Shown here in pieces: positions 2,579-57,780 of a DNA stretch of 64,000 nt; the first letter of the stretch is position 1; the number at the start of each line of letters is the position of its first letter. Position numbers and translations under genes: made by a program. The notes beneath the pieces are model-generated. The model was not told the DNA's origin, did no database searches, and saw only the letters and a list, made by a program, of their open reading frames with translations. The DNA is taken from positions 32,001 through 96,000 of the IMG/VR virus record IMGVR_UViG_3300029288_000107. One strand, given 5' to 3'. This DNA comes from a virus. Its lineage: Duplodnaviria; Caudoviricetes.

Positions 2579-3025
2579 ATGGACTGCACGGCGTGTAGCA
2601 GGGAGGGGACGATCGAGTGCATCGCGTGCTTGCGGGAGCAGCTGGAGAAGGCGGAGCGCGAGATCGAGGAGGTGCGGTCGGCGGTGTGCGCCGACGACAC
2701 CGAGACGACCGTGGAGGCCGCGCTGCACCTGGCGCAGGCGGCGGAGAAGAAGGGGCAGGAGGTGGCGTTTGCGGCGGCGCTGCGGGTTGGTCCGAACGAC
2801 ATCGTGCTCGTGCGTCCGAACCTAGGAGACCTGCCTCCTCACGTGCAGCGGCACCACATGCGGCGGGTGCGGACGGACCTGCTGGAGCTGCTGGAGCGGG
2901 AGGGCGTGCGGCACAGTGGCGTGATCATGCTGGCGCCCGGTTGGGAGCTGTCGGCGGTGTCGCGCGAGCAGCTGCGGGCCCTGCTGGACGGTGCACGCGC
3001 GTGCGCGACAGAGGAGGACGCATGA
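2579..3025 (+). CDS. hypothetical protein with N-terminal CxxC-CxxC
   Basis: MDCTACSREGTIECIAC; ATGA overlap with the next gene. Confidence 0.6.
   Translation: MDCTACSREGTIECIACLREQLEKAEREIEEVRSAVCADDTETTVEAALHLAQAAEKKGQEVAFAAALRVGPNDIVLVRPNLGDLPPHVQRHHMRRVRTDLLELLEREGVRHSGVIMLAPGWELSAVSREQLRALLDGARACATEEDA
2993..3004. repeat. dispersed palindrome GCACGCGCGTGC, copy 1 (in CDS)
   Basis: exact 12-mer. Confidence 0.9.
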
Positions 3026-3288
3026 GGCACCGGACGGCAGCTGGGCGGCGGGATCACCACGCGAAGCAGCGGGTGCGCAAGCAGAGGTATCGGGCGTGGG
3101 AGGCGGAGTACGCGTCGTTCCTGGAGGGGTTGGGGGCCGATCGTGCGACACGCAAGCAAATGTACCGGTTCAGACACATCGCGCGGCCGATCGTGCGGCG
3201 CTGTTTCGACGGCGAGTTGATGCGGGAGATGTTCGGGGTGGAGGTGCGGATCGCGCAGGACGCGATGGTGAGCACGGCGGGCGCGTAG
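3022..3288 (+). CDS. hypothetical basic protein; frame stays open past TAG to 3333
   Basis: GAGGAGG RBS; ATGA overlap. Confidence 0.55.
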   Translation: MRHRTAAGRRDHHAKQRVRKQRYRAWEAEYASFLEGLGADRATRKQMYRFRHIARPIVRRCFDGELMREMFGVEVRIAQDAMVSTAGA

Positions 3289-3332
3289 GCCCTGCCGAAG
3301 CTGGCCGAGATGGTCGGCGGAGGGGAGACTTG

Positions 3333-3686
3333 ATGGGCTACGAGGCGACGACAGAGGTGACTGCGGAGCAGGTCTTCGCGTGGGCGCAGGAGGACATGGC
3401 GGCGCAGCGGAAGGAGCAGGGGGAGTTCCTCTATCTCCGACGCGGGTACTGCGGCCTCCTCCACGTGAGGGAGGATGGCCACGTCGATGCGGCGCAGGAC
3501 GCGGTGTACTCGCACGGCTACCGGGTGGTCTTCTGGCGGTTCGAGGACGGGCGGCCCCGCGAGGTCTGCGCGGTGGAGAAGGCGGACGCGGCGGAGCGCG
3601 CGCACTGGGGCAAGCCTGCGCCGGAACGGAAGCCGGGGCCGTACGTGTGCTCGCGGATGCGGGCCGCACAAGGGGAGGAGCCATGA
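3333..3686 (+). CDS. hypothetical protein
   Basis: RBS, codon bias, ATGA overlap downstream. Confidence 0.6.
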   Translation: MGYEATTEVTAEQVFAWAQEDMAAQRKEQGEFLYLRRGYCGLLHVREDGHVDAAQDAVYSHGYRVVFWRFEDGRPREVCAVEKADAAERAHWGKPAPERKPGPYVCSRMRAAQGEEP

Positions 3687-4051
3687 CGCGGCAGGAGGAG
3701 CTGGTGTGGGCGGCGGCCTGGGCGCTGGGGCTGCATGAGACGGACAGCGGGTACTCGTTGACGCAGCGGCGGAAGCACGCGCGGGCGAAAGCGGCCATCG
3801 CAGTGGGAGCGTTGCGGGAGGAGGCGGACGACCCCATGGTGCGGGAATCGGACGATTGGGCCGAAGAGATGCTGCGCCAGATGGCGGGGGAGCCGAACTG
3901 CTTCACCAGGAGACGACCGGATCCGCAGCGGGGGGCCGTTTACATCATGTGTCAGCACCCGCAGGTCGAGGCAGCGGATCACTGCCATCGGTGCGCGGCG
4001 TTCGGTGGCTGGCCGGAGGAGGAAAGCGATGGCGCTTCTGATAATGGATGA
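3683..4051 (+). CDS. hypothetical protein (VWAAA...MLRQM type, C-terminal Cys/His cluster)
   Basis: GAGGAG RBS; resembles the gene at 4839. Confidence 0.6.
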   Translation: MTRQEELVWAAAWALGLHETDSGYSLTQRRKHARAKAAIAVGALREEADDPMVRESDDWAEEMLRQMAGEPNCFTRRRPDPQRGAVYIMCQHPQVEAADHCHRCAAFGGWPEEESDGASDNG

Positions 4052-4247
4052 CAAGCCGGTGTCGGTGATACTCGACGAGGCAGTCCTCGTGAGTCGTGTG
4101 CTGAAGGAAGCCGGGCACGTCACGATGGCGGGCACCGTTGATGCCGTCGTGCGGCTGGCGCGCGATCTGGTTCACGGGGAGGAGTTGCGGCGGGGATCCG
4201 CCGAGCAGGCCGAGATGATGGAGAGGCTGGCAAGGGTGAAGTCATGA
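4029..4247 (+). CDS. hypothetical protein
   Basis: GGAGGA RBS; ATGA overlap downstream. Confidence 0.55.
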   Translation: MALLIMDDKPVSVILDEAVLVSRVLKEAGHVTMAGTVDAVVRLARDLVHGEELRRGSAEQAEMMERLARVKS

Positions 4248-5477: not shown

Positions 5478-5483
5478 TGACCC

Positions 5484-5621
5484 ATGAAGAAGGATCAGCG
5501 GTTACAGGTGCAGTTCGATGCGGAGATGGCGGCGTGGCTAAAGGCGGAGGCTGAGCGGCGCCGGTGCAGCATAGCGCAGATCATCCGCGATCTGGTGCTG
5601 GCGGCCATGGAAGCGAAGTGA
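5484..5621 (+). CDS. 45-aa CopG/ribbon-helix-helix protein (not in ORF track)
   Basis: MKKDQRLQVQFDAEMAAWLKAEAERRRCSIAQIIRDLV; GTGA overlap with tnpB. Confidence 0.75.
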   Translation: MKKDQRLQVQFDAEMAAWLKAEAERRRCSIAQIIRDLVLAAMEAK

Positions 5622-6868
5622 AGGCGTACCGCACCGAGTTGGACCTGAACAACAAGCAGCGCACGGCGTGTCTGCGGCATGCGGGGGCGGCGCGGTTCAC
5701 CTACAACTGGGGGCTGCAACGCAAGCGTATGGCTTGGGAAGGACGAAAGTCCGTGTTGGATGCTGGAGTGCCCAAAGAGGATGCGCCCAATGTACCCACG
5801 GCCATTGATCTACACCGCGAGCTGAACACGCTCAAGAAGACGGACTTCCCATGGATGTACGAGGTGAGTAAGTGCGCGCCGCAGGAGGCGTTGCGGAACC
5901 TCGACAAGGCGTTTGAGGGGTTCTTCCGGCGCTGCAAGCAGGGCGAGGCCAAGAAGGGATATCCGAAGTTCAAGAGCCGGAAGCAGGGCATTGGATCGTT
6001 TGCGTTGACTGGCACGATCCACGTTTCGGAACGGACCATTCAGTTGCCGCGTCTAGGTGTATTGCGATTGAAAGAGCACGGGTACTTTCCGACGACGGCT
6101 CGGATAACGCGCGCGACGGTATCTGAGCGTGCTGGGCGATGGTTCGTATCCATCCTGACGGACGAGGAACCGGTGCGCAAGAAGGGCACGGAGGTGCTCG
6201 GGGTAGATGTTGGCATCGCGCACCTGGCGGTGTTGTCGGATGGCACGGTGTTCGAGAATCCGATGGCGCTCAAGATCGCACAGGATCGGGTGCGGCGGTT
6301 GCAGAAGTCGGTTAGCCGAAAGGTGAAGGGATCGAAGAATCGGAAGAAGGTAGTGCAGCGGTTGGCGCGGCAGCATTACCGGGTAGCGTGCGTGAGGAGC
6401 AACGCGATCCACCAGGCGACGTCGGCGATATCCAAGAGGGCGGCGGTGGTGGGGATCGAGACGCTCAACGTGCGCGGCATGCTGAAGAATCACTGCCTGG
6501 CTGGTGCCTTGTCCGATGCGGGCATGTCGGAGTTCTTGCGGCAGCTGGAGTATAAGGTGGGCTGGTCGGGCGGCGTGGTGGCGAAGGCGGATCGCTTCTA
6601 TCCATCCTCGAAGCTCTGTTCAGATTGCGGGTACGAGATGGAGGATCTGCCGCTGTCGGTACGGGAGTGGGACTGTCCTGGTTGCGGATCCGTGCATGAT
6701 CGCGACATCAACGCGGCGATGAACCTTCAAAACATGGCGGCCAGTTCGGCCGTGACAGCCTGTGGAGAGGATCGCTCTGGCGCGCAGATGCGGAAGCGCG
6801 TGAAACGAACTTCTGTGAAGCAGGAAATCAACACTGAGCGAGGCATGTCCTCGCTTGGGTCAGTTTGA
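5618..6868 (+). CDS. tnpB: RNA-guided endonuclease TnpB
   Basis: KAYRTELDLN start; RuvC motifs GVDVG, IETLNV, HDRDINAA; zinc finger CSDC/CPGC. Confidence 0.95.
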   Translation: MKAYRTELDLNNKQRTACLRHAGAARFTYNWGLQRKRMAWEGRKSVLDAGVPKEDAPNVPTAIDLHRELNTLKKTDFPWMYEVSKCAPQEALRNLDKAFEGFFRRCKQGEAKKGYPKFKSRKQGIGSFALTGTIHVSERTIQLPRLGVLRLKEHGYFPTTARITRATVSERAGRWFVSILTDEEPVRKKGTEVLGVDVGIAHLAVLSDGTVFENPMALKIAQDRVRRLQKSVSRKVKGSKNRKKVVQRLARQHYRVACVRSNAIHQATSAISKRAAVVGIETLNVRGMLKNHCLAGALSDAGMSEFLRQLEYKVGWSGGVVAKADRFYPSSKLCSDCGYEMEDLPLSVREWDCPGCGSVHDRDINAAMNLQNMAASSAVTACGEDRSGAQMRKRVKRTSVKQEINTERGMSSLGSV

Positions 6869-8499: not shown

Positions 8500-8771
8500 G
8501 CGAGCTGCCGAACGTGGACGAGGCGGAGGGGCTGCCGTTGGAGGTCTTCGCGGGCCTGAGCCTCGTGCTGCACGTGGAGTCGGAGCTGGTAGGTGGGGTG
8601 CTGTTCGTGAGCAACGACTACGTGGCGGCGCCGGGGGATCCGGTCGCGTACCGCGCGTGGGAGCTGGCGTCCCTGCTGTGGCTGGATCAGCGGGTGGTGC
8701 GGCTGACGCACGCGGTCAAGAGTACGTTTGCGGGCGCGCGGGTGACGGCAACGGAAAGGATGAAGGCATGA
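8496..8771 (+). CDS. hypothetical protein
   Basis: ATGA overlaps. Confidence 0.55.
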   Translation: MSELPNVDEAEGLPLEVFAGLSLVLHVESELVGGVLFVSNDYVAAPGDPVAYRAWELASLLWLDQRVVRLTHAVKSTFAGARVTATERMKA

Positions 8772-9532
8772 CGATGAGGTGCGGACGTTGTGGAGTGGAG
8801 GTGCAGGGGTCGGACGCGACGGCGGTGGAGGCGCTGACCGTGGAAGGGACGCTGCTGTGTTCGGTGCTGTGCGCCGACTGCGCGAGGGTGCTGAAGGCCG
8901 GGAAGTATCCCGGGGTGACCATGCGCGCGGACGGGCGGCTGGAGGCGATCCCGAGCGTGCCTGCCAACGACTGCGACAAGCTGGGAGAGCACGGGTGCGG
9001 GGTGCACTGCGGGCCGTGTGACTTCGACGCGGGCAACCAGGCGGACTGCCCGTACCACCAGGACAACGTGCACGCGCGTGCGTCGGAGGGGGATGTGCTT
9101 GTTGTGACGGAGGCGGAGTGGAATCGCGCGGTAGCCCTCCGCGAGCGACTGGCAGCCTACGCGCACGAGGCGTGGGCGATGTGGATGCGGCACCTGAGCA
9201 TGCGGCAGCGCGGGACGAGTTGGCGGGGGGAGCGCGAAATCTGGGAGTTCGAAGTTGAGGACGCGAAGCGGTGGGACAGGCAGGTACGGACGACCTACGC
9301 GGAGCTGCCGGAGGCCGAGAAGGCGAGCGATCGGGCGCAGGCGGACCGCATCCTGGCGATCCTGCGCGGGGCGGACACCACGGTGGCCAAGGAGGAGGCG
9401 GTGCCGTTGGCGGAGCGTCCATGCATGTTCGAGGGGTGTCGCACCCGCACGCATCGGGTCGATCGGGGATACTGTCCGGCGTGCAAGGCGCGGATGAAGG
9501 CGCGCGAGGCGATCCTGCGGGGGGAGGGATGA
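8768..9532 (+). CDS. mosaic protein: Cys-rich segments plus RyR-like helical domain
   Basis: LAAYAHEAW...YAELPEAEKASDR motif. Confidence 0.55.
   Translation: MTMRCGRCGVEVQGSDATAVEALTVEGTLLCSVLCADCARVLKAGKYPGVTMRADGRLEAIPSVPANDCDKLGEHGCGVHCGPCDFDAGNQADCPYHQDNVHARASEGDVLVVTEAEWNRAVALRERLAAYAHEAWAMWMRHLSMRQRGTSWRGEREIWEFEVEDAKRWDRQVRTTYAELPEAEKASDRAQADRILAILRGADTTVAKEEAVPLAERPCMFEGCRTRTHRVDRGYCPACKARMKAREAILRGEG
9070..9081. repeat. palindrome copy 2 (in CDS)
   Basis: exact 12-mer. Confidence 0.9.
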
Positions 9533-9854
9533 TGCGGTTGTTCGACTTGCAGTTCCTGCTTGGACATCGCCTGGATCTGGTCAACCAGGTGGAGGGCGAC
9601 GACGAGTTCATACACAGCGAGAAGTTCTGCGATCTGGACGAGGAGCAGCGTGCGCGGTTCGAGGGCGGCGCGCGTGGGCGACTGTTCCAGCTGCGGGAGA
9701 TCGAGGCGATCGACCTGGCGCACCCGGAACAGGCGGACGCGTGGCTAGGACCACCGTGGCCCATTCGGAAGTCGCTGGAGGAACTGGCGAAGATGGACTT
9801 GCCGTCGAGTTCCAGTTGGAAGGTGCGGGCGATCCTGCGCGGGGAGGGGTGATG
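9508..9854 (+). repeat. 27-nt direct repeat pair (9508-9534, 9828-9854) flanking one gene
   Basis: GGCGATCCTGCG(G/C)GGGGAGGG(A/G)TGATG, 25/27 identical. Confidence 0.8.
9529..9852 (+). CDS. hypothetical protein
   Basis: coupled ORF; ends AILRGEG like the upstream gene. Confidence 0.6.
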
Positions 9855-10142
9855 AACGGACGGACCATGGTGGTGATCGGTGGGGCGCACGCCGGGCAGC
9901 GGGTGGAGGATGTGGCGGGGCCGATGTTGCGCCTGGCCATGTACGCGACACCGCAGGCGATGCTCCCGGGAAGGGGGCTGCCTCCGGACACGACGGTGCG
10001 GGAGGTGGAGTACCGGCGGGTGCGGTTGGCGGAACTGGACGTAACGCTGGAGGCATGGGTCCACCCGTCGGTGCTATCGCCGCTGCGGGAGTTGCTGGAC
10101 CACTACCGGCCGATACGTGCGGTCGTGAGCGAGGAGGGGTGA
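9852..10142 (+). CDS. hypothetical protein
   Basis: TGATG coupling; IGGAHAG motif. Confidence 0.6.
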
Positions 10143-10144
10143 GA

Positions 10145-10291
10145 ATGCGGGTGCGTCCAATCTTCGCCTGGTACGACTGCTGGGTGGGCGTCTTTTGGGA
10201 TCGCGGCAAGCGGATGCTATATGTGTTCCCGCTGCCCATGCTGGGGGTGCGGATCGAGTTCGGAGGAACGTCATGGAGAGACCAAACGTAA
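10145..10291 (+). CDS. small hypothetical protein ([13 protein letters not shown] type)
   Basis: GAGGAGG RBS; aromatic-rich small phage protein. Confidence 0.6.
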
Positions 10292-10482
10292 AGTGCCCCG
10301 TGTGCGGCAGCGCGATAACGAGGTTCCGTATCTACGAGGACGGCAGTCCGGGCGTGGCGACGTGTGGGTGCGGCGCGGAGGTGCCGGTCCTGCGCGAACA
10401 GGTCCGGCTTCTGCGCGGTCCCGATATCGTGTGGAATGGAGAGAGGTGGGAGACGGTGACAGATTCGGAGGATCGATCATGA
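10273..10482 (+). CDS. small zinc-ribbon protein
   Basis: CPVCG...CGCG; GGAGG RBS. Confidence 0.55.
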
Positions 10483-10688
10483 TGCGGATTAAGTACCTAC
10501 TGCGTTGTGCCTGCCATTGGTTGCGGTGCTCGTTGCCAGCTTTGGAGGAATTCTACGAGGCCGGGTGGTGGACGCGCGTGCGTATGCAGTTTTGTGGGGG
10601 AATCTGGATCTGGCATCCAGATCGTGGACGCGTGTGGGTGTACCAGATCAACGGGGAATCCTGGCGGGACGCGCTGGAGGAAGACTGA
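10479..10688 (+). CDS. hypothetical protein
   Basis: GGAGG RBS; ATGA overlap. Confidence 0.5.
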   Translation: MMRIKYLLRCACHWLRCSLPALEEFYEAGWWTRVRMQFCGGIWIWHPDRGRVWVYQINGESWRDALEED

Positions 10689-11714: not shown

Positions 11715-11726
11715 GCACGCGCGTGC
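11715..11726. repeat. palindrome copy 3 (intergenic, after TAA)
   Basis: extends to GCGCACGCGCGTGCGC. Confidence 0.9.
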
Positions 11727-14427: not shown

Positions 14428-14439
14428 GCACGCGCGTGC
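14428..14439. repeat. palindrome copy 4 (intergenic, after TAA)
   Basis: exact 12-mer. Confidence 0.9.
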
Positions 14440-14452: not shown

Positions 14453-14671
14453 ATGACGGATCGAGTGAGCGGCTTGACGGTGATCTTGGACAAGGACGTG
14501 CGGGAGGACGACGTGGACGGTCTGGCGCAGGCGATCGGTCACATGCGGGGCGTGATCAAGGTGACGAAGGAGACGGCGGCGCCGTTCCCGGAGTCGGTGG
14601 CGCGGGCGCGGCTCGCGGAGGATCTGGCGGGGCGTTTTAGGGCCATCCTGGACGATCTGTGGAGGGTCTGA
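14453..14671 (+). CDS. hypothetical protein
   Basis: GAGGAGG RBS; LDKDVREDD motif. Confidence 0.65.
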   Translation: MTDRVSGLTVILDKDVREDDVDGLAQAIGHMRGVIKVTKETAAPFPESVARARLAEDLAGRFRAILDDLWRV

Positions 14672-17566: not shown

Positions 17567-17578
17567 GCACGCGCGTGC
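17567..17578. repeat. palindrome copy 5 (between terL and portal)
   Basis: exact 12-mer. Confidence 0.9.
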
Positions 17579-22191: not shown

Positions 22192-23052
22192 ATGGGATTC
22201 GTACGGAAGGCAGACATCGAACGGCACCGGGCTGGGTGCCTGGAGGCGCGGGTGGCGGCGGTGCGAGAGGCGGCCGAGCGGGCACTGGGCACGGAGATCG
22301 AGGTGATCGCGACGCACGCGGACCACGCCATCGTGCGGGCGGGCAGCGCCGTGAAGCGGCTGACCTACAGCCTCGCGGAGAGCGGCGGCCTCGCGGGCGG
22401 CGTGGCGGTGGAGGACGCGGACATGGCGGCATTGGAGGGGATGGATCTGGACGCGGCGGTGGCGGAGGATCTGCGGGGCGTTGTGGCGGCCATGCTGGCG
22501 GGGCAGGCACTGCCGCGCACGCGCGTGCGTGACCTGTCGCGCATGGCGCGGCGGGATGGCGCGTACTGGCTGGGCGAGGCCGTGGCGGGGTGCGCGCGGG
22601 TCGAGGCGCCGTGGCGGAACTGGTTCGCGCCGCAGTCGGCGACGGTGCGGGAAGCGCTGCACGGGCGCATCCGGGAGATCGAGGAGCCGGTGCCGCGCCA
22701 GCGCTTCGGCAAGCTGCCGGAGGGCAAGCTGCCGGAGTACGCGGGCGAGCTGCGGGAGGGGCTGGCCGCGCTGCGCGTGGTGGCCCGGGGGCTGTTTGAC
22801 GATTTAACGGACGATGTGGCATACCAAGAGGCGGGATTGGCGGCCGTGCACCAATCGCTGCGCGATGAGGCCAGCACCATGGATCGGGGGTTGGCGTGGT
22901 TGGAGCGGATGGCGTGGGCGGGCAGGGAAGGCGTGGTGGCGACGGCTCACGATCAGATCGCAGCGACGCTGCGGGACGCGCTGGTGGTGCGGGAGCACTT
23001 GCGAACGAGAAGGAGCACGGACCATGGAGAGGAAAGTTCAGCCGCTGAGTGA
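22192..23052 (+). CDS. hypothetical head morphogenesis protein
   Basis: strong RBS; lies between portal and protease. Confidence 0.6.
   Translation: MGFVRKADIERHRAGCLEARVAAVREAAERALGTEIEVIATHADHAIVRAGSAVKRLTYSLAESGGLAGGVAVEDADMAALEGMDLDAAVAEDLRGVVAAMLAGQALPRTRVRDLSRMARRDGAYWLGEAVAGCARVEAPWRNWFAPQSATVREALHGRIREIEEPVPRQRFGKLPEGKLPEYAGELREGLAALRVVARGLFDDLTDDVAYQEAGLAAVHQSLRDEASTMDRGLAWLERMAWAGREGVVATAHDQIAATLRDALVVREHLRTRRSTDHGEESSAAE
22517..22528. repeat. palindrome copy 6 (in CDS)
   Basis: exact 12-mer. Confidence 0.9.
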
Positions 23053-24300: not shown

Positions 24301-25941
24301 ATGGGCTGGCTTTTCGAGATGATCCCGACCGGGCTGACGTTGACGGAGGCGGCGGGCGGCAAGCTCACGGCGCGGGGGCTGTTCGGCATCTGCGGCGTGC
24401 CCACGGCGAACGGCCGCATCTACCCGAAGAAGCTGGTGGAGCGGGAGATCGGGCGGCTTGGAGAGCGCATGAAGAACCGGCAGGTGCTGATGCAGCTCGA
24501 TCATCCTTCTGACGGAAAAGCATCGCTGTTGCAAGCGGCGGCGCTGCTCACCGGATTGGACCTCGACGGCGACAACGTCATGGGCGAGGCGGAGATCCTC
24601 GGCACGCCCAACGGCAAGATCCTGCGGGCGCTCATCGAGGCGCAGGTGAAGGTGGGCGTGAGCAGCCGGGGTTTCGGCAGCACCAAGGCTACCAACGAGG
24701 GCGAGGAGGTCGGCGAGGACTTCGCGCTGGCGAGCTACGACTTCGTGGCGGACCCCAGCGTGCGGACCGCGCTTCCCAAGTTCTACGCGGAGAGCGTGGA
24801 GGCGCCCGCCGAGGAGGCGCCGCTGGAGCTGTTCCAGCGGGAGTTCCCGGAGGCGTTCGCGCAGTTGACGGAGGCGGCGACCCGGGACGCGGTGGCGCGG
24901 GCGCAGGAGCAGACGGCGGCCATCATTGCGAAGGCGGTCGAGACGGAACGCACGCGCGTGCGAGACGAGATGACGGAGGCGTTCGAGCACCAGCTGCGGG
25001 ACGCCGTGGTTGGCTTGCGTGAGGATTTGGAGCGCGATCTGCGCGAGGAGTACGAGCGGGACCCGGCGGTGGCGGGGGCCCGGGCGGCGCTGGCGCAGGT
25101 GGTGGAGATGATCCGGCCGTACCAGCAGGCGCCGGACGCCGACGCGGTGCGGGACGCGCTGCGGGCGCGGGAGCTGGAGCTGGCCACGGCGCATGAGGCG
25201 ACGGCGCAGGCGGAGGAGCGGGCGGCGCGGTCGGACCGGCTGCTCGCGCTGGAGACCAAGCTGGCGGGGCACCCGCTGGCGGATCCGCTGCGCAAGGTGC
25301 TGGCGCCGGTGGTGGCGCGCGAGCGCGATGAGGGGCTGGCCGGGCGGCTGGACGACCTCATTGCGGAGGCGGCCGACATGGTCCCGGCGAGCGAGGTGGA
25401 GGCGCGGGCGGCCGAGCGCATCGCGCTCACCGAGGCGCAGGATCTGATCAAGGAGAACGAGCAGAAACGGTCCCAACTGGCGGAACGGGTGGACGAGTTG
25501 AAGGCCAAGTTGGTCGAAGCGGTGAAGCTGGGGCAGGAAGCGGACGGGCTGCGGGCGGAGGCCGAGCAGCGCGCGGAGGAGGCGGAAGCCAAGCTCGACG
25601 AGGGCGAGGCGGAGGTCGACGAGCGCGAGCTGGCGGCATTCAAACGCGGTGCGGCGGCGATTCTGCCTGCGGGCGCACGGGCGCGCAAGCTCATCGAGGC
25701 GGCTGGCGACGAGGCCGAGGTGGAGCAGGTGCTGGTGGAGAGCAGGGCGCAAGCCATGGGTGACGGGGACTTGGAGCAGGCGCGGCAGGCGGTCCGGGGC
25801 CGAGGGATGGCACCGGGGGCGGCCGCGTTCCGGCTGGAGGAGGGGGCGTCGCGCGGTGGTGCGCGGGGCTCCGACGAGGTGGTCTCGGCCACGGGCCTGA
25901 CCGCCAACGACATGACCGCGCTACTAGGAGACGGTCAGTAG
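24301..25941 (+). CDS. prohead protease (T4 gp21-like) fused to coiled-coil scaffold
   Basis: NGRIYP, QLDHP, GTPNGKI, GVSSRGFGS, YDFVADPS; long Glu/Ala coiled coil. Confidence 0.93.
   Translation: MGWLFEMIPTGLTLTEAAGGKLTARGLFGICGVPTANGRIYPKKLVEREIGRLGERMKNRQVLMQLDHPSDGKASLLQAAALLTGLDLDGDNVMGEAEILGTPNGKILRALIEAQVKVGVSSRGFGSTKATNEGEEVGEDFALASYDFVADPSVRTALPKFYAESVEAPAEEAPLELFQREFPEAFAQLTEAATRDAVARAQEQTAAIIAKAVETERTRVRDEMTEAFEHQLRDAVVGLREDLERDLREEYERDPAVAGARAALAQVVEMIRPYQQAPDADAVRDALRARELELATAHEATAQAEERAARSDRLLALETKLAGHPLADPLRKVLAPVVARERDEGLAGRLDDLIAEAADMVPASEVEARAAERIALTEAQDLIKENEQKRSQLAERVDELKAKLVEAVKLGQEADGLRAEAEQRAEEAEAKLDEGEAEVDERELAAFKRGAAAILPAGARARKLIEAAGDEAEVEQVLVESRAQAMGDGDLEQARQAVRGRGMAPGAAAFRLEEGASRGGARGSDEVVSATGLTANDMTALLGDGQ
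24950..24961. repeat. palindrome copy 7 (in CDS)
   Basis: exact 12-mer. Confidence 0.9.
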
Positions 25942-28086: not shown

Positions 28087-28650
28087 ATGCGTCTGGACGA
28101 GCTGAACGCGCGGGCTGTGGCGCCCGCGGAGTTGGGCGTAGGGAGCCTCGTGGAGGTGCGGACCCGCATGGGGGCCGTGGTGGCGGAGGGGGCCGCGGCG
28201 TACCCGACGGCGCATGGGACCTGCGTGGGGGGCCGCTTCTTCGACGGGGCGCTCTACCTGTTCCTGCCGAAGGAAACGCACGCGCGTGCGCCATTGGACG
28301 AGGCCAAGGCCAAGGAGAGGCGGGGCAAGTCCAAGTTGGGGCCGCTGGACCCGGAGGCGCTGCCGGATGACGTGCGGCTCGCCGTTACGGTGGACCACGA
28401 CCTCAACGAGGAGGACGTGCAGCGCGTGCTGGCCTCCATCGGCGATGCGGCGCTACAGGCACTGAAGGGAGTCGGCATGCGGGAGGACGAGGTCTACGCC
28501 CGCGTGGCCGCCGTGCTGAAGGCCGTGGAAAACTGCCTCGTGGCCAAGGAGGGCGCTGCGGAGGACGCGGCCGCCGCCAAGGCGCGCGTGGATGCGGCGA
28601 GCAAGGTCAAGCGCAAGGCGAGCGGCACCGACGCCGACGACGAGGAATAG
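28087..28650 (+). CDS. hypothetical head-associated protein
   Basis: MRLDEL start; internal LDEA site. Confidence 0.6.
   Translation: MRLDELNARAVAPAELGVGSLVEVRTRMGAVVAEGAAAYPTAHGTCVGGRFFDGALYLFLPKETHARAPLDEAKAKERRGKSKLGPLDPEALPDDVRLAVTVDHDLNEEDVQRVLASIGDAALQALKGVGMREDEVYARVAAVLKAVENCLVAKEGAAEDAAAAKARVDAASKVKRKASGTDADDEE
28278..28289. repeat. palindrome copy 8 (in CDS)
   Basis: exact 12-mer. Confidence 0.9.
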
Positions 28651-29752: not shown

Positions 29753-29784
29753 CGCGCACGAGCGTGTGCGATTAGGAGAGGATC

Positions 29785-33851: not shown

Positions 33852-34192
33852 GGGCCAAGATCTACTGGTTCTGCACGACGTGCGAGCGGCTGCCAGCAGG
33901 CGGCGAGTGCGACCAGCCGATCTGCCACGGGCCCATCGCGGGGGGCTGGTTCCCGGCGTACCGTGGCCCGCTGCGGAAGGCTGGAGATTACGCGCACCAG
34001 TGGTGCTTCATGTGCGGTCAGCCCGCGACGGCGGCCGTGCGGGTGGCGGATCACTACATGGGGGTCTGCGCGACGCACATCAACCACCTGCGCACGCGCG
34101 TGCGTCGGGAGGGGGGGCAGGTGCGGGACGTCTTCATGCGCGAGCAGAACGGCGTGTGGGGCTGCCTCGACGACGAGTTGCGGCCCCGTTGA
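33848..34192 (+). CDS. Cys-rich hypothetical protein
   Basis: CTTC, CFMC, CATH; ATGA overlap. Confidence 0.6.
   Translation: MRAKIYWFCTTCERLPAGGECDQPICHGPIAGGWFPAYRGPLRKAGDYAHQWCFMCGQPATAAVRVADHYMGVCATHINHLRTRVRREGGQVRDVFMREQNGVWGCLDDELRPR
34092..34103. repeat. palindrome copy 9 (in CDS)
   Basis: exact 12-mer. Confidence 0.9.
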
Positions 34193-37309: not shown

Positions 37310-37321
37310 GCACGCGCGTGC
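37310..37321. repeat. palindrome copy 10 (intergenic, after TAG)
   Basis: extends to a 16-mer. Confidence 0.9.
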
Positions 37322-42057: not shown

Positions 42058-42069
42058 GCACGCGCGTGC
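42058..42069. repeat. palindrome copy 11 (between tube genes)
   Basis: extends to a 16-mer. Confidence 0.9.
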
Positions 42070-42085: not shown

Positions 42086-42700
42086 ATGGCGCGCAACATC
42101 CTAGCCGATCTGTTGCAGAACCATCGTTTCTGGCTCATGGATCTGGTGCCGTCGGCGACCTACCCGTTCTTCGTGTTGGGCTCCCCCATCTACGGGTTCC
42201 AGAGCATCTCGATGCCGGAGTACACGTTCGAGACGCGCGAGATCAAGCAGATGAACAGCATGCTCAAGCGCACCGTGTACGAGGGTGGCGGCTGGGGCAC
42301 AATCACGCTGTCGCGGGGTGTGCGCATCGTGGACGACACGTTCTACGAGTGGGTACGGCGCGCCATCGACGGGCTGGACACGATCGATCGGGATCTGCTG
42401 CTGGTGCAGTTCCACCCGGCGAGCGCGAAGATTCTCGACGGGGCCAACATCCAGGCGCTGGTCAACGGCGCCGGGGCCATCGGAAACCCGACGGCGGCGG
42501 CGGTGAACGCGCTGGTGGGCGGCATGGACTGCGGCTACCTGCGCAACATCCCGGGCAAGGCGTGGCTGCTCTGGGGGGCCGTGCCGACGCGCTACAAGCC
42601 GGGCAGCGATTTGGACGCAACGGACGCCGGGGTCAGCATCATGGAGATCGAGATCGCTGTGACGAATGTGTCTGAGTTTTCACTACTTTCGCCACTTTAG
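42086..42700 (+). CDS. second tail tube paralogue (Afp5-like)
   Basis: GFQSISMPE, ITLSRGV, PTRYKPGSDLDA. Confidence 0.88.
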   Translation: MARNILADLLQNHRFWLMDLVPSATYPFFVLGSPIYGFQSISMPEYTFETREIKQMNSMLKRTVYEGGGWGTITLSRGVRIVDDTFYEWVRRAIDGLDTIDRDLLLVQFHPASAKILDGANIQALVNGAGAIGNPTAAAVNALVGGMDCGYLRNIPGKAWLLWGAVPTRYKPGSDLDATDAGVSIMEIEIAVTNVSEFSLLSPL

Positions 42701-44505: not shown

Positions 44506-44517
44506 GCACGCGCGTGC
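44506..44517. repeat. palindrome copy 12 (intergenic, after TAG)
   Basis: extends to a 16-mer. Confidence 0.9.
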
Positions 44518-48221: not shown

Positions 48222-48293
48222 GCCTCTGTGGCCCAACGGTAGGGCGCCGGACTTTCAATTCCGTGATTCTAGGTTCAAATCCTAGCAGAGGCG
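48222..48293 (+). tRNA. tRNA-Glu(TTC)-like, imperfect anticodon stem, no encoded CCA
   Basis: acceptor GCCTCTG/CAGAGGC; D arm GCCC-AACGGTA-GGGC; T arm CTAGG-TTCAAAT-CCTAG; loop CTTTCAA; TTGACA at 48182 upstream. Confidence 0.8.
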
Positions 48294-48304
48294 CGGATGG
48301 TGGG

Positions 48305-48908: not shown

Positions 48909-49100
48909 ATGCGGCTGAACGTAGAGTTGAAGAACGAGCTGTATGCCGAGGTGAGCGTGCACGCCGAACGGGAGGGGCGCAGCATCAGCGACGTGGTGCG
49001 GGTGCTGTTGCTGGACTGGTGCAAGGCGAAGCGGCGCGAGGAGCGCGAAGAACGCGCACGCGCGTGCGCGCAGGAAAAGGTGGCAGGAGGGAACGGATGA
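48909..49100 (+). CDS. ribbon-helix-helix DNA-binding protein
   Basis: RLNVELKNELY...AEREGRSISDVVRVLL. Confidence 0.8.
   Translation: MRLNVELKNELYAEVSVHAEREGRSISDVVRVLLLDWCKAKRREEREERARACAQEKVAGGNG
49056..49067. repeat. palindrome copy 13 (3' end of the RHH gene; longest copy, 18-mer 49053-49070)
   Basis: CGCGCACGCGCGTGCGCG. Confidence 0.9.
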
Positions 49101-49660
49101 ACGGGACCAACGTGACGGTGGTGACGGCGCCGGAGCCGTGGGTGAACGCGGGGCCGGAGGCCGTGTCGGTGTTTTTGGCGGGGGGCATCCAGCGGTGCCC
49201 GTGGTGGCAGGTGGAGGTCATCGACCTGCTGCGGGGCATCCCCAACCTGGGCGAGGTCGTGGTGTACAACCCGCGGCGCGCCAACTTCCCCATCGACGAT
49301 CCGAGTGCGGCGCAGGCGCAGATCGAGTGGGAGTTCCTGATGCTGGACCGGGCGCAGGTGTTCAGCATGTGGTTCCCGAACGCGGACTCCGATTGCCCGA
49401 TCTGCATGTACGAGTTGGGGCGGCACCTCGCGCTGCGGATGCGGGATCGACAGGGGCACCTCGTGGCGCTGGGCGTGGACCCGGGCTACCGGCGCGCGCG
49501 CGACGTGGAGGTGCAGGTGGCGCTGGCCTGCGGGGGGCACGAGGAGGTGGAGATCGAGCGGAGCCTGCTGGCGCACGTGCGGAGCATCGGGCTGGCCGTG
49601 CTGGCGGCCCGCCACTTGGGGCAGTCGTTGCGCGATCGCGCGCAGGGGAGGGTGAATTGA
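49097..49660 (+). CDS. nucleoside 2-deoxyribosyltransferase-like protein
   Basis: VFLAGGI..C..WQ, YNPRR, QIEWE, WFP, PIC.YELG. Confidence 0.85.
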   Translation: MNGTNVTVVTAPEPWVNAGPEAVSVFLAGGIQRCPWWQVEVIDLLRGIPNLGEVVVYNPRRANFPIDDPSAAQAQIEWEFLMLDRAQVFSMWFPNADSDCPICMYELGRHLALRMRDRQGHLVALGVDPGYRRARDVEVQVALACGGHEEVEIERSLLAHVRSIGLAVLAARHLGQSLRDRAQGRVN

Positions 49661-50992: not shown

Positions 50993-51165
50993 AGGACGAC
51001 GTGTTTTACGCCATGGAGATGCTCGCGGTAGGATACGACGACGCCATGGCGATCCCCTGGTCGCGCCGGAAGCGCATCGTGGAGCGGAAGGCCGACTTGG
51101 AGCACAAGCGCGCGGCGGCGCAGCGGCAGGCACAGCTGGCATCGCGCGTGCGACGGGGAAGATAG
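50959..51165 (+). CDS. -1 frameshift extension of the tail chaperone
   Basis: slippery T TTT TTC at 50959-50965; -1 frame reads LEDDVFY...MAIPWSRRK and ends 1 nt before the tape measure ATG. Confidence 0.8.
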   Translation, partial: FFLPLGEAQALEDDVFYAMEMLAVGYDDAMAIPWSRRKRIVERKADLEHKRAAAQRQAQLASRVRRGR

Positions 51166-54424: not shown

Positions 54425-54691
54425 GTGGCGGCGTGGGCGGTCACGGCCGGGAGCCTGCTCGCGTTGTTCGTGGCGCTGATGGCGTGGACGTGCTGGTACC
54501 TGCGGCGCGATCTGCGGTCGTACCGGAGGCGCTGCGGGGGCCGCTGGGGGCTGGTGCGGGGGCGGGCCAGTGCGGGCATGGAGGCGCCCGAGTGGTGGTT
54601 GCTGGAGAGCGAGATCGGCGAGGGCCAGTCAGTCCTGCGGTGGGAGGAGTGGCCGAGGCGCACGCGCGTGCGCAGGCGAGGTGACGCATGA
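54425..54691 (+). CDS. small membrane protein
   Basis: N-terminal TM helix; ATGA overlap. Confidence 0.5.
   Translation: MAAWAVTAGSLLALFVALMAWTCWYLRRDLRSYRRRCGGRWGLVRGRASAGMEAPEWWLLESEIGEGQSVLRWEEWPRRTRVRRRGDA
54660..54671. repeat. palindrome copy 14 (in CDS)
   Basis: extends to a 16-mer. Confidence 0.9.
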
Positions 54692-55065
54692 GTCTGCCCG
54701 ATGGGGTCCGCGCGACGCCGGTGTCGCAGGGGTCCGTGCTCAAATGGATGGAAGAGCACGCCGTGTGGGACAGCGTGCGCGGCGCGGAGGTGCGGTTCTT
54801 CGGCGTGTTCGAGGCGCCGGACATGACAACGGCCTCCGACGGCGAGATGCTCATCGTGGTGGACGACGTCAACGTGCGGCTGGACCGGCTGGCCTACAAG
54901 TACTTCGGGGACGCGAGCCTCGGATGGATCATCGCGCTCTACAACGACCTCGACGTGCCGGACGCGGAGCTGTACCGAGGACTGCAACTGCACATCCCGA
55001 GCAAGCAGTGGGTGGCGGACAACATCCTGCTTCAGCAGCGCGAGTCGCGGCGGTCGCGGATATAG
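54688..55065 (+). CDS. baseplate LysM/tail-X (gp53-like) protein
   Basis: RLDRLAYKYFGD..LGWIIA..N...G..LHIP. Confidence 0.85.
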   Translation: MSLPDGVRATPVSQGSVLKWMEEHAVWDSVRGAEVRFFGVFEAPDMTTASDGEMLIVVDDVNVRLDRLAYKYFGDASLGWIIALYNDLDVPDAELYRGLQLHIPSKQWVADNILLQQRESRRSRI

Positions 55066-55072
55066 GTGGATC

Positions 55073-56440: not shown

Positions 56441-57400
56441 ATGCCAGCGTTCAACCGTGACGACGCCTTCCTTGCTCGCAACCCCATTGCGTGGCTGCGC
56501 CAGGTCCTCAGCGACTGGGGGCTGGAGTCGTTCTGCAAGCGGTACTACGGCACCTACCCGGGCGTGGTGGTGGACAACGCGGACCCGGAGGGGCTGTACC
56601 GCATCAGGGCCCTATGCCCGGCCATCGGGTTGAACAAGTCGGAGGGCGTGCCGGAGAACTACTGGGCGTGGCCGTGCCTGCCCGGGTTAGGGAACGATCA
56701 GGACGGGTTGTCGGGTGGGGACGTGTGGGTGCCAGACGTCGGCAGCAACGTGTGGCTCCAGTTTGAGGGGGGCAGCCCGAAGAGCCCCATCTACATGGGG
56801 GGATGGGTCAACGTCAAGAAGGCCATGCCGGAGCTGGACCACGCGGCGGCGCTGCGCAAGGGCATCCGCACGCGCAGCGGGCACTTCCTGCGCTTCAGCG
56901 ACGATCCGGCCGACCTGCACATCACGATCGGCAAGGGGGACGGGGCGGGGTCGCAGACGGCCTCGTTTCTGACGTTCGACAAGGACGGCAACGTCGCCAT
57001 CAGCAACGACAAGGGCTCCCTGCTCTACATGAACGCGCAGGATGACGAGGTCAGCGTCGTCACGGCCAATGCGGACGGCGAGACGGAGAGCATAGTCATG
57101 CTGGGCAAGGACGAGGTCACGCTGGCCACGAAGGGCGGCGCCACGTTCGGCATGAAGGGGAAGGACATCACGATCAACGGGGGCAATATCATCCTCAACG
57201 GGACCATGGTGCACCTGGCAACGAAGCAGATCTACCTGGGCAAGAACGCGACGGAGCCCGCGGTGCTGGGCAACAAGCTGGCGCTGAACATGGCGTTGCA
57301 GATACACGGGACCGCGGCGCCGGGCTCGCCGACGACGCCGCCGACGACGCCACCGCCGCTGCTGGGCAAGGAACTGTCCACGGTCGTGTTCATCGAGTAG
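56441..57400 (+). CDS. baseplate spike (gpV/gp5 OB-fold)
   Basis: YYGTYPGVVVDN.DPE, WAWP, VP.VG..VW..FEGG, TRSGH. Confidence 0.92.
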   Translation: MPAFNRDDAFLARNPIAWLRQVLSDWGLESFCKRYYGTYPGVVVDNADPEGLYRIRALCPAIGLNKSEGVPENYWAWPCLPGLGNDQDGLSGGDVWVPDVGSNVWLQFEGGSPKSPIYMGGWVNVKKAMPELDHAAALRKGIRTRSGHFLRFSDDPADLHITIGKGDGAGSQTASFLTFDKDGNVAISNDKGSLLYMNAQDDEVSVVTANADGETESIVMLGKDEVTLATKGGATFGMKGKDITINGGNIILNGTMVHLATKQIYLGKNATEPAVLGNKLALNMALQIHGTAAPGSPTTPPTTPPPLLGKELSTVVFIE

Positions 57401-57409
57401 GGGGACGAC

Positions 57410-57763
57410 GTGTCGAAGTGCAAGATTCCAGCGCTGCCCATCCCGAAGCTGACGATACCGGTTCCGGGGATCCCCTTTTCGATTCCGAAGCCGCCGGGGT
57501 TGCCGAAGGTCCCGAAGTTGCCGGGATACGGGATCGCGTTGAAGCTGCCGGTGCCGAAGCTGACAATCCCAGTGCCCGGGATACCGTTCTCGATTCCGAA
57601 GCCGCCGAGTCTGCCGAAGGTTCCGAAGTTGCCGAGTTACGGGATCGCGCTGAAGTTGCCGGTGCCGAAGTTCACGATTCCGGTCCCGGGGATACCGTTC
57701 TCGATTCCGAAACCGCCAGCGCTTCCGGGCATCCCGGGAGTTCCGGCGTGCCCGTTGGACTGA
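57410..57763 (+). CDS. Pro/Lys-rich tandem-repeat protein
   Basis: 37-aa (111-nt) unit, about 2.7 copies; Cys near both ends, C-terminus CPLD. Confidence 0.75.
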   Translation: MSKCKIPALPIPKLTIPVPGIPFSIPKPPGLPKVPKLPGYGIALKLPVPKLTIPVPGIPFSIPKPPSLPKVPKLPSYGIALKLPVPKFTIPVPGIPFSIPKPPALPGIPGVPACPLD

Positions 57764-57768
57764 TCTGC

Positions 57769-57780
57769 GCACGCGCGTGC
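57769..57780. repeat. palindrome copy 15 (intergenic)
   Basis: extends to a 16-mer. Confidence 0.9.

Follow-up and report, generated by a model that had tools for sequence, protein, structure and literature searches.

One exact palindrome repeated between and within the genes of an uncultured T4-like phage: candidate docking sites for a phage-encoded symmetric protein

Why should a phage repeat one exact palindrome along its genome, so often in the short gaps between its genes? The question is raised by an uncultured T4-like phage in which a single palindrome of 12-16 bases recurs about every 4 kb, many of the copies lying between genes. The window analysed here is a 64-kb stretch of DNA, bases 32001-96000 of a 104,812-bp IMG/VR virus record (IMGVR_UViG_3300029288_000107; Caudoviricetes) that is estimated to be 57% complete. 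The 12-mer GCACGCGCGTGC is present in 15 copies in the window and 26 in the record, and is the commonest 12-mer of the whole record. All 15 exact copies of the original prediction were found where it had placed them, and 13 of them are CGCACGCGCGTGCG, as it had said (Table 1). The 13-mer GCACGCGCGTGCG is common to all 26 copies in the record, many of which are extended to GCGCACGCGCGTGCGC.

The number of copies had been judged far above the expectation from base composition, and the excess holds under stricter null models. Markov models of orders 0-5 predict 0.04-0.19 copies of the 12-mer in the whole record (0.06-0.16 with the motif masked); orders 1-5 give approximately 0.1-0.2 against the 26 seen. 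Dinucleotide shuffles of the window contain a mean of 0.07 copies and a maximum of 1. The enrichment is limited to exact copies. Near-copies do exist at 10570, 14891 and 29756, as had been noted, but copies with one or two mismatches are not enriched as a class and are at or below chance (16 seen vs approximately 29 expected). Under synonymous codon shuffling a mean of 13.9 of the 26 copies remains, close to the 12-13 non-coding copies that are retained by construction; the coding copies are thus lost. The earlier view that the sites form one system throughout the phage, under selection as nucleic acid, is supported.

Copies are concentrated at gene junctions. Twelve of the 26 are wholly non-coding, compared with a non-coding share of 5.8% of the record (P = 6e-9), and a typical junction copy lies 1-9 nt past a stop codon and 11-18 nt ahead of the next ATG. 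Our own gene calls reproduce the earlier division of the window copies into seven intergenic and eight coding. No copy lies within either TnpB gene (IS605 family; 5618-6868 and 34206-35417), in agreement with the earlier remark on the two insertion sequences. The coding copies occupy all three frames, as had been claimed, but use them unequally: seven of the 13 in the record are in the RTRVR frame (one reads GTRVR), and the cysteine-containing ARAC frame occurs only at 33 nt or less from a stop. The copies are also more evenly spaced than expected by chance. Gaps in the window measure 2433-6077 bp, which bears out the estimate of 2.4-6.1 kb. The spacing has a coefficient of variation of 0.446 (P = 1.5e-5 vs random placement), and none of 50,000 draws restricted to gene junctions was as even.

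Table 1. Copies of the palindrome and the ribbon-helix-helix gene in the window, with the corresponding sites in relatives
Feature	Position	Strand	Context	Relatives
Motif copy	2993..3004		3'-terminal 21 nt of gene 2579-3025, ARAC frame; ATG of gene 3022 follows after 17 nt	
Motif copy	9070..9081		In called gene 8768-9532, HARA frame; Shine-Dalgarno and ATG 11 nt downstream	Site ~50 nt from this position in G001 orthologue
Motif copy	11715..11726		Intergenic; 2 nt past stop, ATG 11 nt downstream	
Motif copy	14428..14439		Intergenic; 1 nt past stop, 13 nt before ATG at 14453	
Motif copy	17567..17578		Intergenic; directly upstream of portal gene 17593-19314	Site at same junction in G002
Motif copy	22517..22528		Coding; head-module gene 22192-23052, RTRVR	Same codon position (~aa 111) in orthologues of G001, G002, G004, G005, own spellings
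Motif copy	24950..24961		Coding; prohead protease gene 24301-25941, RTRVR	Position occupied in G002 (own spelling) and L372 (spelling unchanged)
Motif copy	28278..28289		Coding; gene 28087-28650, HARA frame	Sequence and position kept in L372
Decayed copy CGCACGAGCGTGTG	29755..29768		Just past stop, upstream of gene 29785	Intact site at neighbouring junction in G001, G004, G005
Motif copy	34092..34103		Coding; near end of conserved gene 33848-34192, RTRVR frame; ~100 nt before TnpB element	
Motif copy	37310..37321		Intergenic; 1 nt past stop, 16 nt before gene 37338; tail sheath 37877-40999 lies downstream	Site at equivalent junction in G002
Motif copy	42058..42069		Intergenic; 16 nt before tail-tube-like gene 42086-42700	
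Motif copy	44506..44517		Intergenic; 1 nt past stop, 14 nt before gene 44532	Site at same junction in G002
CopG-type ribbon-helix-helix (RHH) gene	48909..49100	+	E = 7e-6; own sigma-70-like promoter amid late genes; ends with motif copy	Conserved and syntenic in G001, G002, G005
Motif copy	49056..49067		Last 33 nt of RHH gene, ARAC frame; 29 nt before ATG at 49097	
Decayed copy GCATCGCGCGTGCG	51139..51152		One-base insertion in left arm; upstream of gene 51166	Junction carries an intact site in G001, G002, G005
Motif copy	54660..54671		3'-terminal 20 nt of gene 54425-54691; baseplate-wedge-like gene 54688-55065 follows after 16 nt	
Motif copy	57769..57780		Intergenic; 14 nt before gene 57795	Sites at same junction in G002 and G005

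Related T4-like phages that show an array all have it in the same 5+4+5 form, each with its own spelling. The form consists of an arm of 5-6 bp, a 4-bp centre and the mirrored arm, here (G)CGCAC-GCGC-GTGCG(C). In each of G001-G005 such a palindrome or inverted repeat is among the commonest k-mers. CGAAC-N4-GTTCG is the spelling of G004, G005 and L363 and of the shorter loci L127, L137 and L140, which have 3-5 copies each. The centre is fixed within each genome, and the non-palindromic centres of G005 and L127 are found in both orientations on the coding strand. The arms differ among related phages of similar GC content (G000, G001, G002 and G003, all 66-67%). One complete 153-kb relative, G006, has no obvious palindrome array although it does have a two-domain MerR-type homologue.

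Many sites occupy orthologous places in phages whose proteins are 35-50% identical, with differing spellings. These places include the interior of gene 22192-23052 (five lineages), the junction before the portal gene, the interior of the protease gene and the junctions before five other structural genes. The peptide across the head-module site is always R-T-R/Q-V-R or RMRMR in the five lineages. A closer relative (L372), whose major capsid protein is 70% identical, has the identical 16-mer at two coding positions with flanks that are 51-78% identical. Conservation in relatives extends to synonymous positions of the coding copies.

Comparison with the relatives also bears on the suggestion that the motif forms Z-DNA or is otherwise structure-prone, and on the possibility of a selfish micro-repeat, spread by gene conversion, that has no reader. 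The motifs of G000, G001 and part of G002 do alternate purines and pyrimidines over 14-16 nt. Recombination can spread identical short repeats, and repeat-flanked indels are reported for Cluster O phages (PMC4351075). However, the CGAAC-N4-GTTCG and GGACC-GTAC-GGTCC lineages break the alternation while architecture and positions stay the same. A selfish repeat fits poorly with positions that are long conserved while the spelling shifts in concert and with near-copies that are not enriched, and a mobile element would need more than 14-16 bp. These readings are scarcely credible and are already largely refuted by the relatives.

Most sites lie 1-9 nt past a stop and just ahead of the next ribosome-binding site, where a short GC hairpin after a cistron could act in the RNA: it might terminate or attenuate transcription, stabilise the 3' end, or serve as a protein-bound element for processing or translation control. 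Two sites of G002 look like terminators, being followed by T-runs and then a promoter. In G001 symmetric arm combinations exceed independence (18 seen vs approximately 8 expected), which hairpins or several homodimeric readers could explain as well, and some sites are perfect palindromes over 26 bp. Against this, the A/C variants of the two half-sites in G002 occur in all four combinations at 11, 11, 10 and 9 sites (Fisher p = 1) with no compensatory pairing, so that 21 of the 41 sites would carry a C-U or A-G mismatch in a stem. Flanks at the outer positions of the 16-mer in G000 are conserved without mutual compensation, and outside the 16-mer pairing is only at chance level. The hairpin would have 5-6 bp and a minimum free energy of -8.5 to -12.4 kcal/mol, which is that of shuffled sequence (z ~0), and a U-tract follows none of the 26 copies in the record. 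In most lineages the centre is self-complementary; otherwise it is present in both orientations. A loop needs neither, and some conserved coding copies are far from any gene end. The pairing and stability data speak against the RNA processing hairpins of the original prediction, and an RNA-level role of any kind is unlikely. Independent half-sites, absence of stem covariation and a hairpin no stabler than shuffles point instead to double-stranded DNA and a two-fold symmetric protein.

It is rather probable, in our view, that a symmetric protein encoded by the phage uses the palindromes as docking sites of high specificity on double-stranded DNA. The dimeric binder that had been suggested earlier would be the best fit. 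Site density is equal in early and late regions and the sites have no fixed position relative to sigma-70-like promoters, which makes simple operator control unlikely. The uniform density and the even spacing would suit a DNA-processing substrate. The enzyme might be a symmetric nuclease, nickase, resolvase or type II topoisomerase, and its action would initiate recombination-dependent replication, remove supercoils or resolve branches. The restriction-site-like exactness, the palindromic 4-bp centre and the symmetric arms agree with such an enzyme, and the record encodes RuvC-like and PD-(D/E)XK nucleases as well as a RecA/UvsX-like recombinase. Nevertheless, no enzyme is linked to the sites and the strong preference for gene junctions would be superfluous. 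The contigs of four DNA runs, which could reveal joints or ends and not nicks, contain none centred on a site save repeat-induced alignment ends. We know of no resolvase or topoisomerase that needs 14-16 exact bases, and consider DNA processing improbable.

The original prediction named the RHH protein at 48909 as a candidate reader of the sites. It is a real CopG-type protein, and its conservation, its own promoter and the motif copy at its end (Table 1) count in its favour. The DNA-reading element of RHH proteins is the beta-strand. Here the N-terminal, RLNVEIK-like strand is alike in all four genomes, whose motifs differ in both arms and centre. A small palindrome of another kind, AGATCT, is conserved in the RHH promoter region and suggests that the gene is autoregulated locally. 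In addition, G003, whose record is 59% complete and has a full array, yielded no orthologue. The constant strand and the AGATCT palindrome make the protein a weak candidate, and it is quite unlikely to be the reader.

A better candidate, and apparently the best, is an early-expressed MerR-type winged-helix protein of approximately 180 aa known from relatives: G001, G002, G003, G007, the L127 phage (locus L321) and loci L329, L332, L361-L363 and L323/L324. The family profile matches the DNA-binding domains of CarH, MerR, CadR, CueR and RacA in the PDB, the match to RacA being weak (E = 0.13). The protein has a conserved N-terminal RYxxDPAYR region, and its winged helix is C-terminal to this charged N-terminal part. 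Judged from sequence, the recognition helix appears to co-vary with the motif arms across about five lineage classes, uncorrected for shared ancestry: RS[KV][DN]x[IL]NYWTRIG with CGAAC arms (six records, 50-66% GC), [PS]RDTV[KQ][DE]W with CGYAY-GCGC (G001 and G007), RNISTVSQME with GGACC, ITVWVLREW with TGCAA-N4-TTGCA, and VTPWTISRW with CGCAA-TCAA-TTGCG. The RHH protein, taken as a control, shows no such co-variation. The MerR-type gene is not on the present 57%-complete record. In G002 it directly precedes the orthologue of the record's second gene, and in G001 it lies approximately 3.5 kb upstream of the gene orthologous to the one at record position 1231. In the phage studied it should, we predict, be found approximately 2-3 kb beyond the left end of the record.

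A host protein could read the sites instead, for example a LexA-type repressor, the phage recruiting or titrating a host regulator. Six of the relatives carry exactly CGAAC-N4-GTTCG, the ancestral spelling in the lineage, which we take to be the Cheo box, the SOS box of Gram-positives and Chloroflexi. The phage-encoded reader is still at the level of a candidate, and the TnpB gene has its nearest relatives in genomes of Ktedonobacteria (Chloroflexota), though at only 50-52% identity. However, the CGCAC arms of the phage studied and those of G001 and G003 match no LexA box known to us, and arms vary among related phages of similar GC (G000-G003). A centre fixed in each genome and near-copies without enrichment are unlike a regulon of degenerate operators, and no site overlaps a promoter. 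A search of five phage records for a LexA DNA-binding domain gave none, which excludes a phage-borne LexA only. A host reader is very improbable.

If the palindromes are docking sites for a phage protein, the reader would be two-fold symmetric (dimeric or two-domain), sequence-specific and encoded by the phage lineage, and sites and reader would change together between lineages. Sites would be put at gene junctions, between the stop and the ribosome-binding site, sparing proteins; inside genes they would persist only if the encoded peptide can accommodate them, in most cases as RTRVR. Binding may set up a roadblock to transcription or an insulator where genes meet, in the manner of stoperators or Gp36 of phage D29, or may organise the phage chromosome genome-wide, like RacA/ram or KorB/OB. 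Of the roles named in the original prediction, parS/matS-like marks, stoperator-like roadblocks and supercoil relief are still candidates.

Several known systems share features with this array. The LexA Cheo box is letter for letter the ancestral spelling of the lineage, but the sites here are CGCAC-GCGC-GTGCG with a fixed centre, are away from promoters and number approximately 25-40 exact copies per 100-160 kb. The stoperators of Cluster A mycobacteriophages (L5 gp71) are many short sites in intergenic gaps; they are asymmetric and oriented, and are read by the immunity repressor of temperate phages. Gp36 of phage D29 is a phage MerR-family repressor that binds GC-rich direct repeats (PMC12266134). 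Stoperators and Gp36 sites resemble the present array in that one short site recurs many times in the small gaps between the genes of operons, and there the bound phage protein lowers expression of downstream genes. They differ in that the sites described here are perfect palindromes in a lytic-looking, T4-like phage, in which neither an integrase nor a repressor was noticed.

Identical palindromes dispersed over a whole replicon are also present on plasmid RK2, where the OB sites have one reader, KorB, that acts on expression at a distance (PMC11790492). KorB is a ParB-family CTPase clamp; of the phages, only G002 and G003 gave a ParB_N domain, which the present record, G001 and G005 did not. 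In Bacillus subtilis the MerR-type winged helix of RacA reads a 14-bp GC-rich palindrome, TGACGCCGGCGTCA (ram), in approximately 25 dispersed regions, and so organises and anchors the chromosome (PMC4914108). Dispersed GC-rich palindromes and a MerR-type candidate reader are common to both systems. RacA, however, is a sporulation protein of a cell, has a coiled coil at its C terminus and binds sites clustered near the origin, whereas in the candidate of the relatives the winged helix follows the charged region and the sites are even and at gene junctions. The Cluster O mycobacteriophages (Corndog; Cresawn et al. 2015) have 17-bp dyad repeats in more than 30 copies per genome, with invariant inverted-repeat arms, partly in short intergenic gaps and partly in ORFs; the repeats are absent from the host, and their authors suggest a dimeric binder (PMC4351075). 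The likeness lies in genome-wide inverted repeats with invariant arms, in gaps as well as ORFs and at similar positions in related genomes. The Cluster O repeat is 7-3-7 (TGTTCGG-N3-CCGAACA) with an AT-rich variable centre and one spelling shared among Mycobacterium siphoviruses, whereas the T4-like arrays are built as 5/6-4-5/6, keep a fixed centre, are spelled differently in each lineage and are evenly spaced.

A single exact palindrome is dispersed across the virus record IMGVR_UViG_3300029288_000107 (G000, here the record), and the array itself is well established. The original prediction of 15 exact copies of the 12-mer GCACGCGCGTGC in the window proved correct for every copy, against a mean of 0.07 in dinucleotide shuffles. 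The whole record of 104,812 bp (IMG/VR, estimated to be 57% complete) holds 26 exact copies, and GCACGCGCGTGC is its commonest 12-mer. The count also withstands the higher-order null that had been proposed as a check: Markov models of orders 0 to 5 over the whole record predict 0.04-0.19 copies, or 0.06-0.16 with the motif masked. One- and two-mismatch versions show no enrichment (16, where about 29 would be expected), so it is the exact word that is kept. The 13-mer GCACGCGCGTGCG is common to all 26 copies and a 5' C to 21 of them, with the 16-mer GCGCACGCGCGTGCGC as the favoured full-length form. Decayed copies lie at two junctions where relatives have sites (see the table).

The motif favours gene junctions. 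Twelve of the 26 copies are wholly non-coding, against 5.8% of the record (P = 6e-9); 12-13 copies are classed as intergenic and 13 as coding. A typical junction runs from the stop codon through 1-9 nt to the motif, then to a Shine-Dalgarno sequence and the ATG, with the motif ending 11-18 nt before the start codon. A called start lies 9-20 nt downstream of 14 copies, against 0.5 expected. These junctions hold little beyond the motif and the ribosome-binding site, and the constant distance to the ATG may therefore result from genome compaction rather than show translational control. Use of all three frames by the coding copies was confirmed. The R-T-R-V-R frame accounts for 7 of the 13 (one reads GTRVR), and the Cys-containing ARAC frame is restricted to within 33 nt of a stop. 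Synonymous codon shuffling left a mean of 13.9 of the 26 copies, which is about the number of non-coding copies kept by construction. The copies are more evenly spaced than chance (CV 0.446, P = 1.5e-5 against random placement), and none of 50,000 draws restricted to gene junctions matched this evenness. The tendency is also found in the related T4-like phage records G003 (CV 0.56, P = 0.001) and G002 (CV 0.74, P = 0.03). The early/replication and structural parts of the record do not differ in motif density.

The record (67% GC) is strongly skewed towards G over C, and its approximately 167 genes lie essentially all on the plus strand. It represents a T4-like myovirus with a gp23-type major capsid protein (PF07068), portal, prohead protease, tail sheath and baseplate wedge, and it also codes for a RecA/UvsX-like protein, a RuvC-like nuclease and a helicase. 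A Pfam scan of 98 early-region proteins of this 57%-complete record returned no integrase or repressor family. The best GTDB matches of the second TnpB, used for host inference, are from Ktedonobacteria at only 50-52% identity. A 45-aa ParG/RHH-like ORF precedes the first TnpB and is 76% identical to an ORF of G002. A 30-bp unit outside the window (core GTCCAGCCAGCCGCACGTGG; G000:C1:9690-10090, L005:9690-10090) is repeated head to tail thirteen times within a gene and encodes a 10-residue protein repeat. Several nucleoside 2-deoxyribosyltransferase-like proteins offer hints of unusual nucleotide or DNA-modification chemistry. When 7.9 kb of window sequence was compared by blastn with deposited phages, no match emerged. 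Contigs of four DNA runs yielded nothing but identical sequence or pieces of conserved genes from other phages, and alignment ends at the motif in those runs were caused by the repeat itself.

Features of the record, in window and whole-record coordinates
Feature	Window	Record	Remark
Coding copies in R-T-R-V-R frame	22517, 24950	424, 25075, 26139, 66092, 86660	
Decayed motif copies	29755, 51139		
Head-module gene with orthologous site	22192-23052		site at about codon 111
Sigma-70-like promoters	25, 5449, ~15500, ~27650, 48182, 48305, 48860	7913, 9454, 18478, 26971	TTGACACGGCG-N-GTGTTAYAAT; longer intergenic gaps
First TnpB (OrfB) gene (5618-6868) with the 45-aa ORF before it	5484-6868 (+)		inserted; IS605 family
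Second TnpB (OrfB) gene	34206-35417 (-)		inserted; IS605 family
tRNA-Glu (TTC)	48222-48294		a single tRNA gene, as called by ARAGORN; flanked by two TTGACA boxes, immediately upstream of the RHH region
RHH protein	48909-49100 (+)		CopG-type ribbon-helix-helix
2-deoxyribosyltransferase-like proteins	49097-49660	early region	PF15891, DUF4406, DUF1937, DUF7768
30-bp tandem repeat		9690-10090	within gene at 9537-10601

The sigma-70-like promoter family (TTGACACGGCG ... GTGTTAYAAT) is separate from the palindrome. A TTGACA promoter adjoins only one of the 26 copies (record 102537), and 7 of 41 sites in G002. Where the two share a gap the motif usually lies beside the upstream stop, ahead of the -35 box (record 102537; seven G002 sites), and the sites are not placed like operators of these promoters. 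A search of the four high-GC records (G000-G003) found no T4-type late promoter TATAAATA. On the coding strand GTTGACAAA has 11 copies in G001 and 27 in G002.

Capsid-based searches found relatives with a major capsid protein 30-49% identical, and five whole records (G001-G005) were compared. In each of these, a palindrome or inverted repeat of one architecture (arm, 4-bp centre, arm) is among the commonest k-mers. The spellings are CGYAY-GCGC-RTRCG in G001 (mainly GCGCATGCGCATGCGC), CGMAC-ACGT-GTKCG in G002 (41 copies), GGACC-GTAC-GGTCC in G003 (23 copies), CGAAC-TCGA-GTTCG in G004 (35% GC) and CGAAC-TYRA-GTTCG in G005. Two shorter loci have CGAAC-CYRG-GTTCG (L127) and CGAAC-TSSA-GTTCG (L137). 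Conservation in relatives, on which the idea of a phage-wide site system depended, was found: sites lie at orthologous places, each lineage in its own spelling. One falls within a head-module gene in five lineages; others lie before the portal gene, in the protease gene and before five other structural genes. The conserved coding site reads RTRVR, RTRVR, RTQVR, RTRVR and RMRMR in five genomes. The CGNAC-type spellings differ at positions 3, 6, 9 and 12 of the 14-mer, which are third codon positions in the RTRVR frame, and embedded coding copies may thus channel how the motif can evolve.

Exact-motif scans returned nothing larger than small fragments of this sub-lineage. L372 (major capsid protein 70% identical, head proteins 52-70%) has three copies, and at two coding positions the 16-mer is identical within flanks only 51-78% identical. 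L026 has two copies and no detected protein homology. A search for close relatives with the record's 430-aa gene found nothing. Non-palindromic centres (TCAA/TTGA, CTGG/CCAG and TGGA/TCCA, in G005 [L224-L229], L127, L137 and L140) are always one substitution from TCGA or CCGG, and none of 17 sites in G005 has the palindromic centre TCGA. We infer that these centres may reflect avoidance of, or escape from, host 4-bp restriction sites. No palindrome array was found in G006 (L340-L347), a complete 153-kb relative, which instead carries about nine repeats of an asymmetric, AT-rich 20-mer (CTTAATTAACCTTATCTCCC-like).

The original prediction had offered both an RNA hairpin and Z-DNA as readings of the motif. 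A hairpin would have a 5-6 bp stem and a tetraloop. In G002 the left-arm A/C and right-arm T/G choices combine freely (11, 11, 10 and 9 copies; Fisher p = 1), so half of its sites are unable to form that base pair. The RNA reading was not borne out in the face of this lack of compensatory stem changes and of folding z-scores of -0.4 to +0.3 against shuffles. The outermost positions of the 16-mer in G000 are conserved on each side without mutual compensation, complementarity outside the 16-mer is at chance level in all five genomes tested, and the non-palindromic centres of relatives are found in both orientations on the coding strand. No U-tract or T-run comes after any of the 26 copies; in G002, T-runs follow two sites, a point counter to a duplex-DNA reading. 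The motif differs from intrinsic terminators in all these respects: compensation, U-tract and a stability not above background. The Z-DNA proposal also failed. Purine/pyrimidine alternation is present in G000 but not in the CGAAC-N4-GTTCG or GGACC-GTAC-GGTCC lineages, which keep the same positions, and Z-DNA is therefore not a conserved property. Overall, each site behaves like a pair of half-sites that are read separately on duplex DNA, the predicted signature of a two-fold symmetric protein. Counter to this independence, G001 favours symmetric pairs of arms (18, where independence predicts about 8, by our own count).

Several candidate readers were considered. The RHH protein proposed earlier is real and is kept in G001, G002 and G005. 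Its beta-strand does not change among the four genomes though the motifs differ, and its promoter has another small palindrome, so that its proposed role as reader was not upheld. A LexA DNA-binding domain was found in none of five records. ParB_N (PF02195) occurs only in G002 and G003 and is absent from G000, G001 (88% complete) and G005; HTH_23 matches were weak and scattered. Searches with the conserved small proteins of the structural module yielded no DNA-binding family. Two G002 proteins (121 and 195 aa), both conserved, resemble, by eye, a beta-rich structural protein and an IstB/DnaC-like ATPase, and an IstB_IS21 Pfam match in G002 fits the latter. G002 (L210-L218) also encodes an RNA polymerase alpha-CTD-like domain, a ribosomal L7/L12 C-terminal domain, GroES, a KH-domain protein, Dam and NAD synthase.

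A Pfam scan of 150 G002 proteins revealed a MerR-type HTH. Homologues of about 180 aa in G001, G002 and G003 combine an N-terminal RYxxDPAYR region with a C-terminal winged helix, and the genes in G001 and G002 lie behind early-type promoters. More homologues were found in G007, the L127 phage (locus L321), L329, L332, L361-L363 and L323/L324. The family profile matches the DNA-binding domains of CarH, MerR, CadR and CueR, and RacA weakly. Judged from sequence, the recognition-helix classes match the motif arms, with only about five classes and shared ancestry uncorrected. Helix ...NYWTRIG accompanies arms CGAAC (six records, 50-66% GC) and ...RDTV[KQ][DE]W accompanies CGYAY-GCGC (G001, G007); RNISTVSQME pairs with GGACC, ITVWVLREW with TGCAA-N4-TTGCA, and VTPWTISRW with CGCAA-TCAA-TTGCG. 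The gene was not found on the 57%-complete G000 record. In G002 it lies directly upstream of the orthologue of the second G000 gene, and in G001 it precedes the orthologue of the gene at record 1231 by about 3.5 kb; from this synteny it is expected just beyond the left end of the G000 contig. A complex prediction with two copies of the G002 protein scored zero, which counts neither way, and G006 has a homologue despite having no array. We regard the MerR-type protein as a testable candidate reader of the array.

Placement at gene junctions, even spacing and equal early and late density fit roadblocks or insulators between transcription segments, for which stoperators and D29 Gp36, a MerR-family phage repressor (PMC12266134), are parallels. 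The same features would also fit a genome-wide organisation of the phage chromosome, for which RacA/ram and KorB/OB are parallels, and a DNA-processing enzyme may instead act at the sites. A more specific proposal, which we consider improbable, is that in this clade a replication-coupled timer, made up of the array and an early MerR-type protein, takes the place of the T4 TATAAATA/gp55 late-promoter logic. Bound at approximately 45 gene junctions, the protein would act as a roadblock or insulator. The multiplication of genome copies, and so of sites, would titrate it away and release read-through into late genes. The lack of a TATAAATA-like late promoter in the high-GC members is consistent with such a timer, as is the position of the sites at junctions, where a roadblock would make no truncated proteins.

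Dispersed invariant palindromes have been noted in a few phages, Cluster O among them; here they mark an entire lineage of uncultured T4-like phages with GC contents of 35-70%. Their positions have persisted since the lineages diverged, and spellings have drifted by paths mostly silent in embedded coding copies (RTRVR). The array comes with a concrete, testable candidate reader family whose recognition helix appears to track the site arms. If it does, the clade would provide a natural series of protein-DNA specificity switches and a handle on genome organisation and timing in large lytic phages that lack T4-type late promoters.

Literature searches turned up no account of this kind of array in T4-like phages. 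The stoperators of Cluster A phages, which are read by the immunity repressor of a temperate phage, are asymmetric, 13-14 bp long and in one orientation relative to transcription. In contrast to that asymmetry, the motif here is a perfect palindrome, and the non-palindromic centres of relatives occur in both orientations. The LexA SOS (Cheo) box has the consensus CGAAC-N4-GTTCG, and its operators overlap promoters and occur as degenerate copies across a regulon. This spelling occurs only in relatives, whereas G000 has CGCAC-GCGC-GTGCG, situated between stop and ribosome-binding site and with no enrichment of near-copies. The PeSL cassettes of T4-type phages join an early promoter and stem-loop flanking novel ORFs, unlike the motif, which has a promoter beside one copy of 26 only. 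Identical palindromes dispersed over a replicon recall the sites of ParB/KorB-type systems (PMC11790492 for KorB/OB), although G000 has no ParB_N (PF02195) reader. RacA/ram, in which a MerR-type winged helix reads a 14-bp GC-rich palindrome at many dispersed sites (PMC4914108), has this kind of dispersed palindrome in common with G000, and a MerR-type winged helix is present in G001, G002, G003, G007 and seven further records, though not on the incomplete G000. Of the published repeats, the one nearest to this array is the 17-bp dyad repeat of Cluster O mycobacteriophages, itself unexplained (PMC4351075). That repeat (TGTTCGG-N3-CCGAACA) has another sequence and architecture and belongs to siphoviruses of Mycobacterium, whereas the present phages have a gp23-type capsid, tail sheath and baseplate. 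The two share invariant inverted-repeat arms, tens of copies genome-wide (26 in 104.8 kb here), and a mix of copies in short intergenic gaps and copies within ORFs, similarly placed in related phages.
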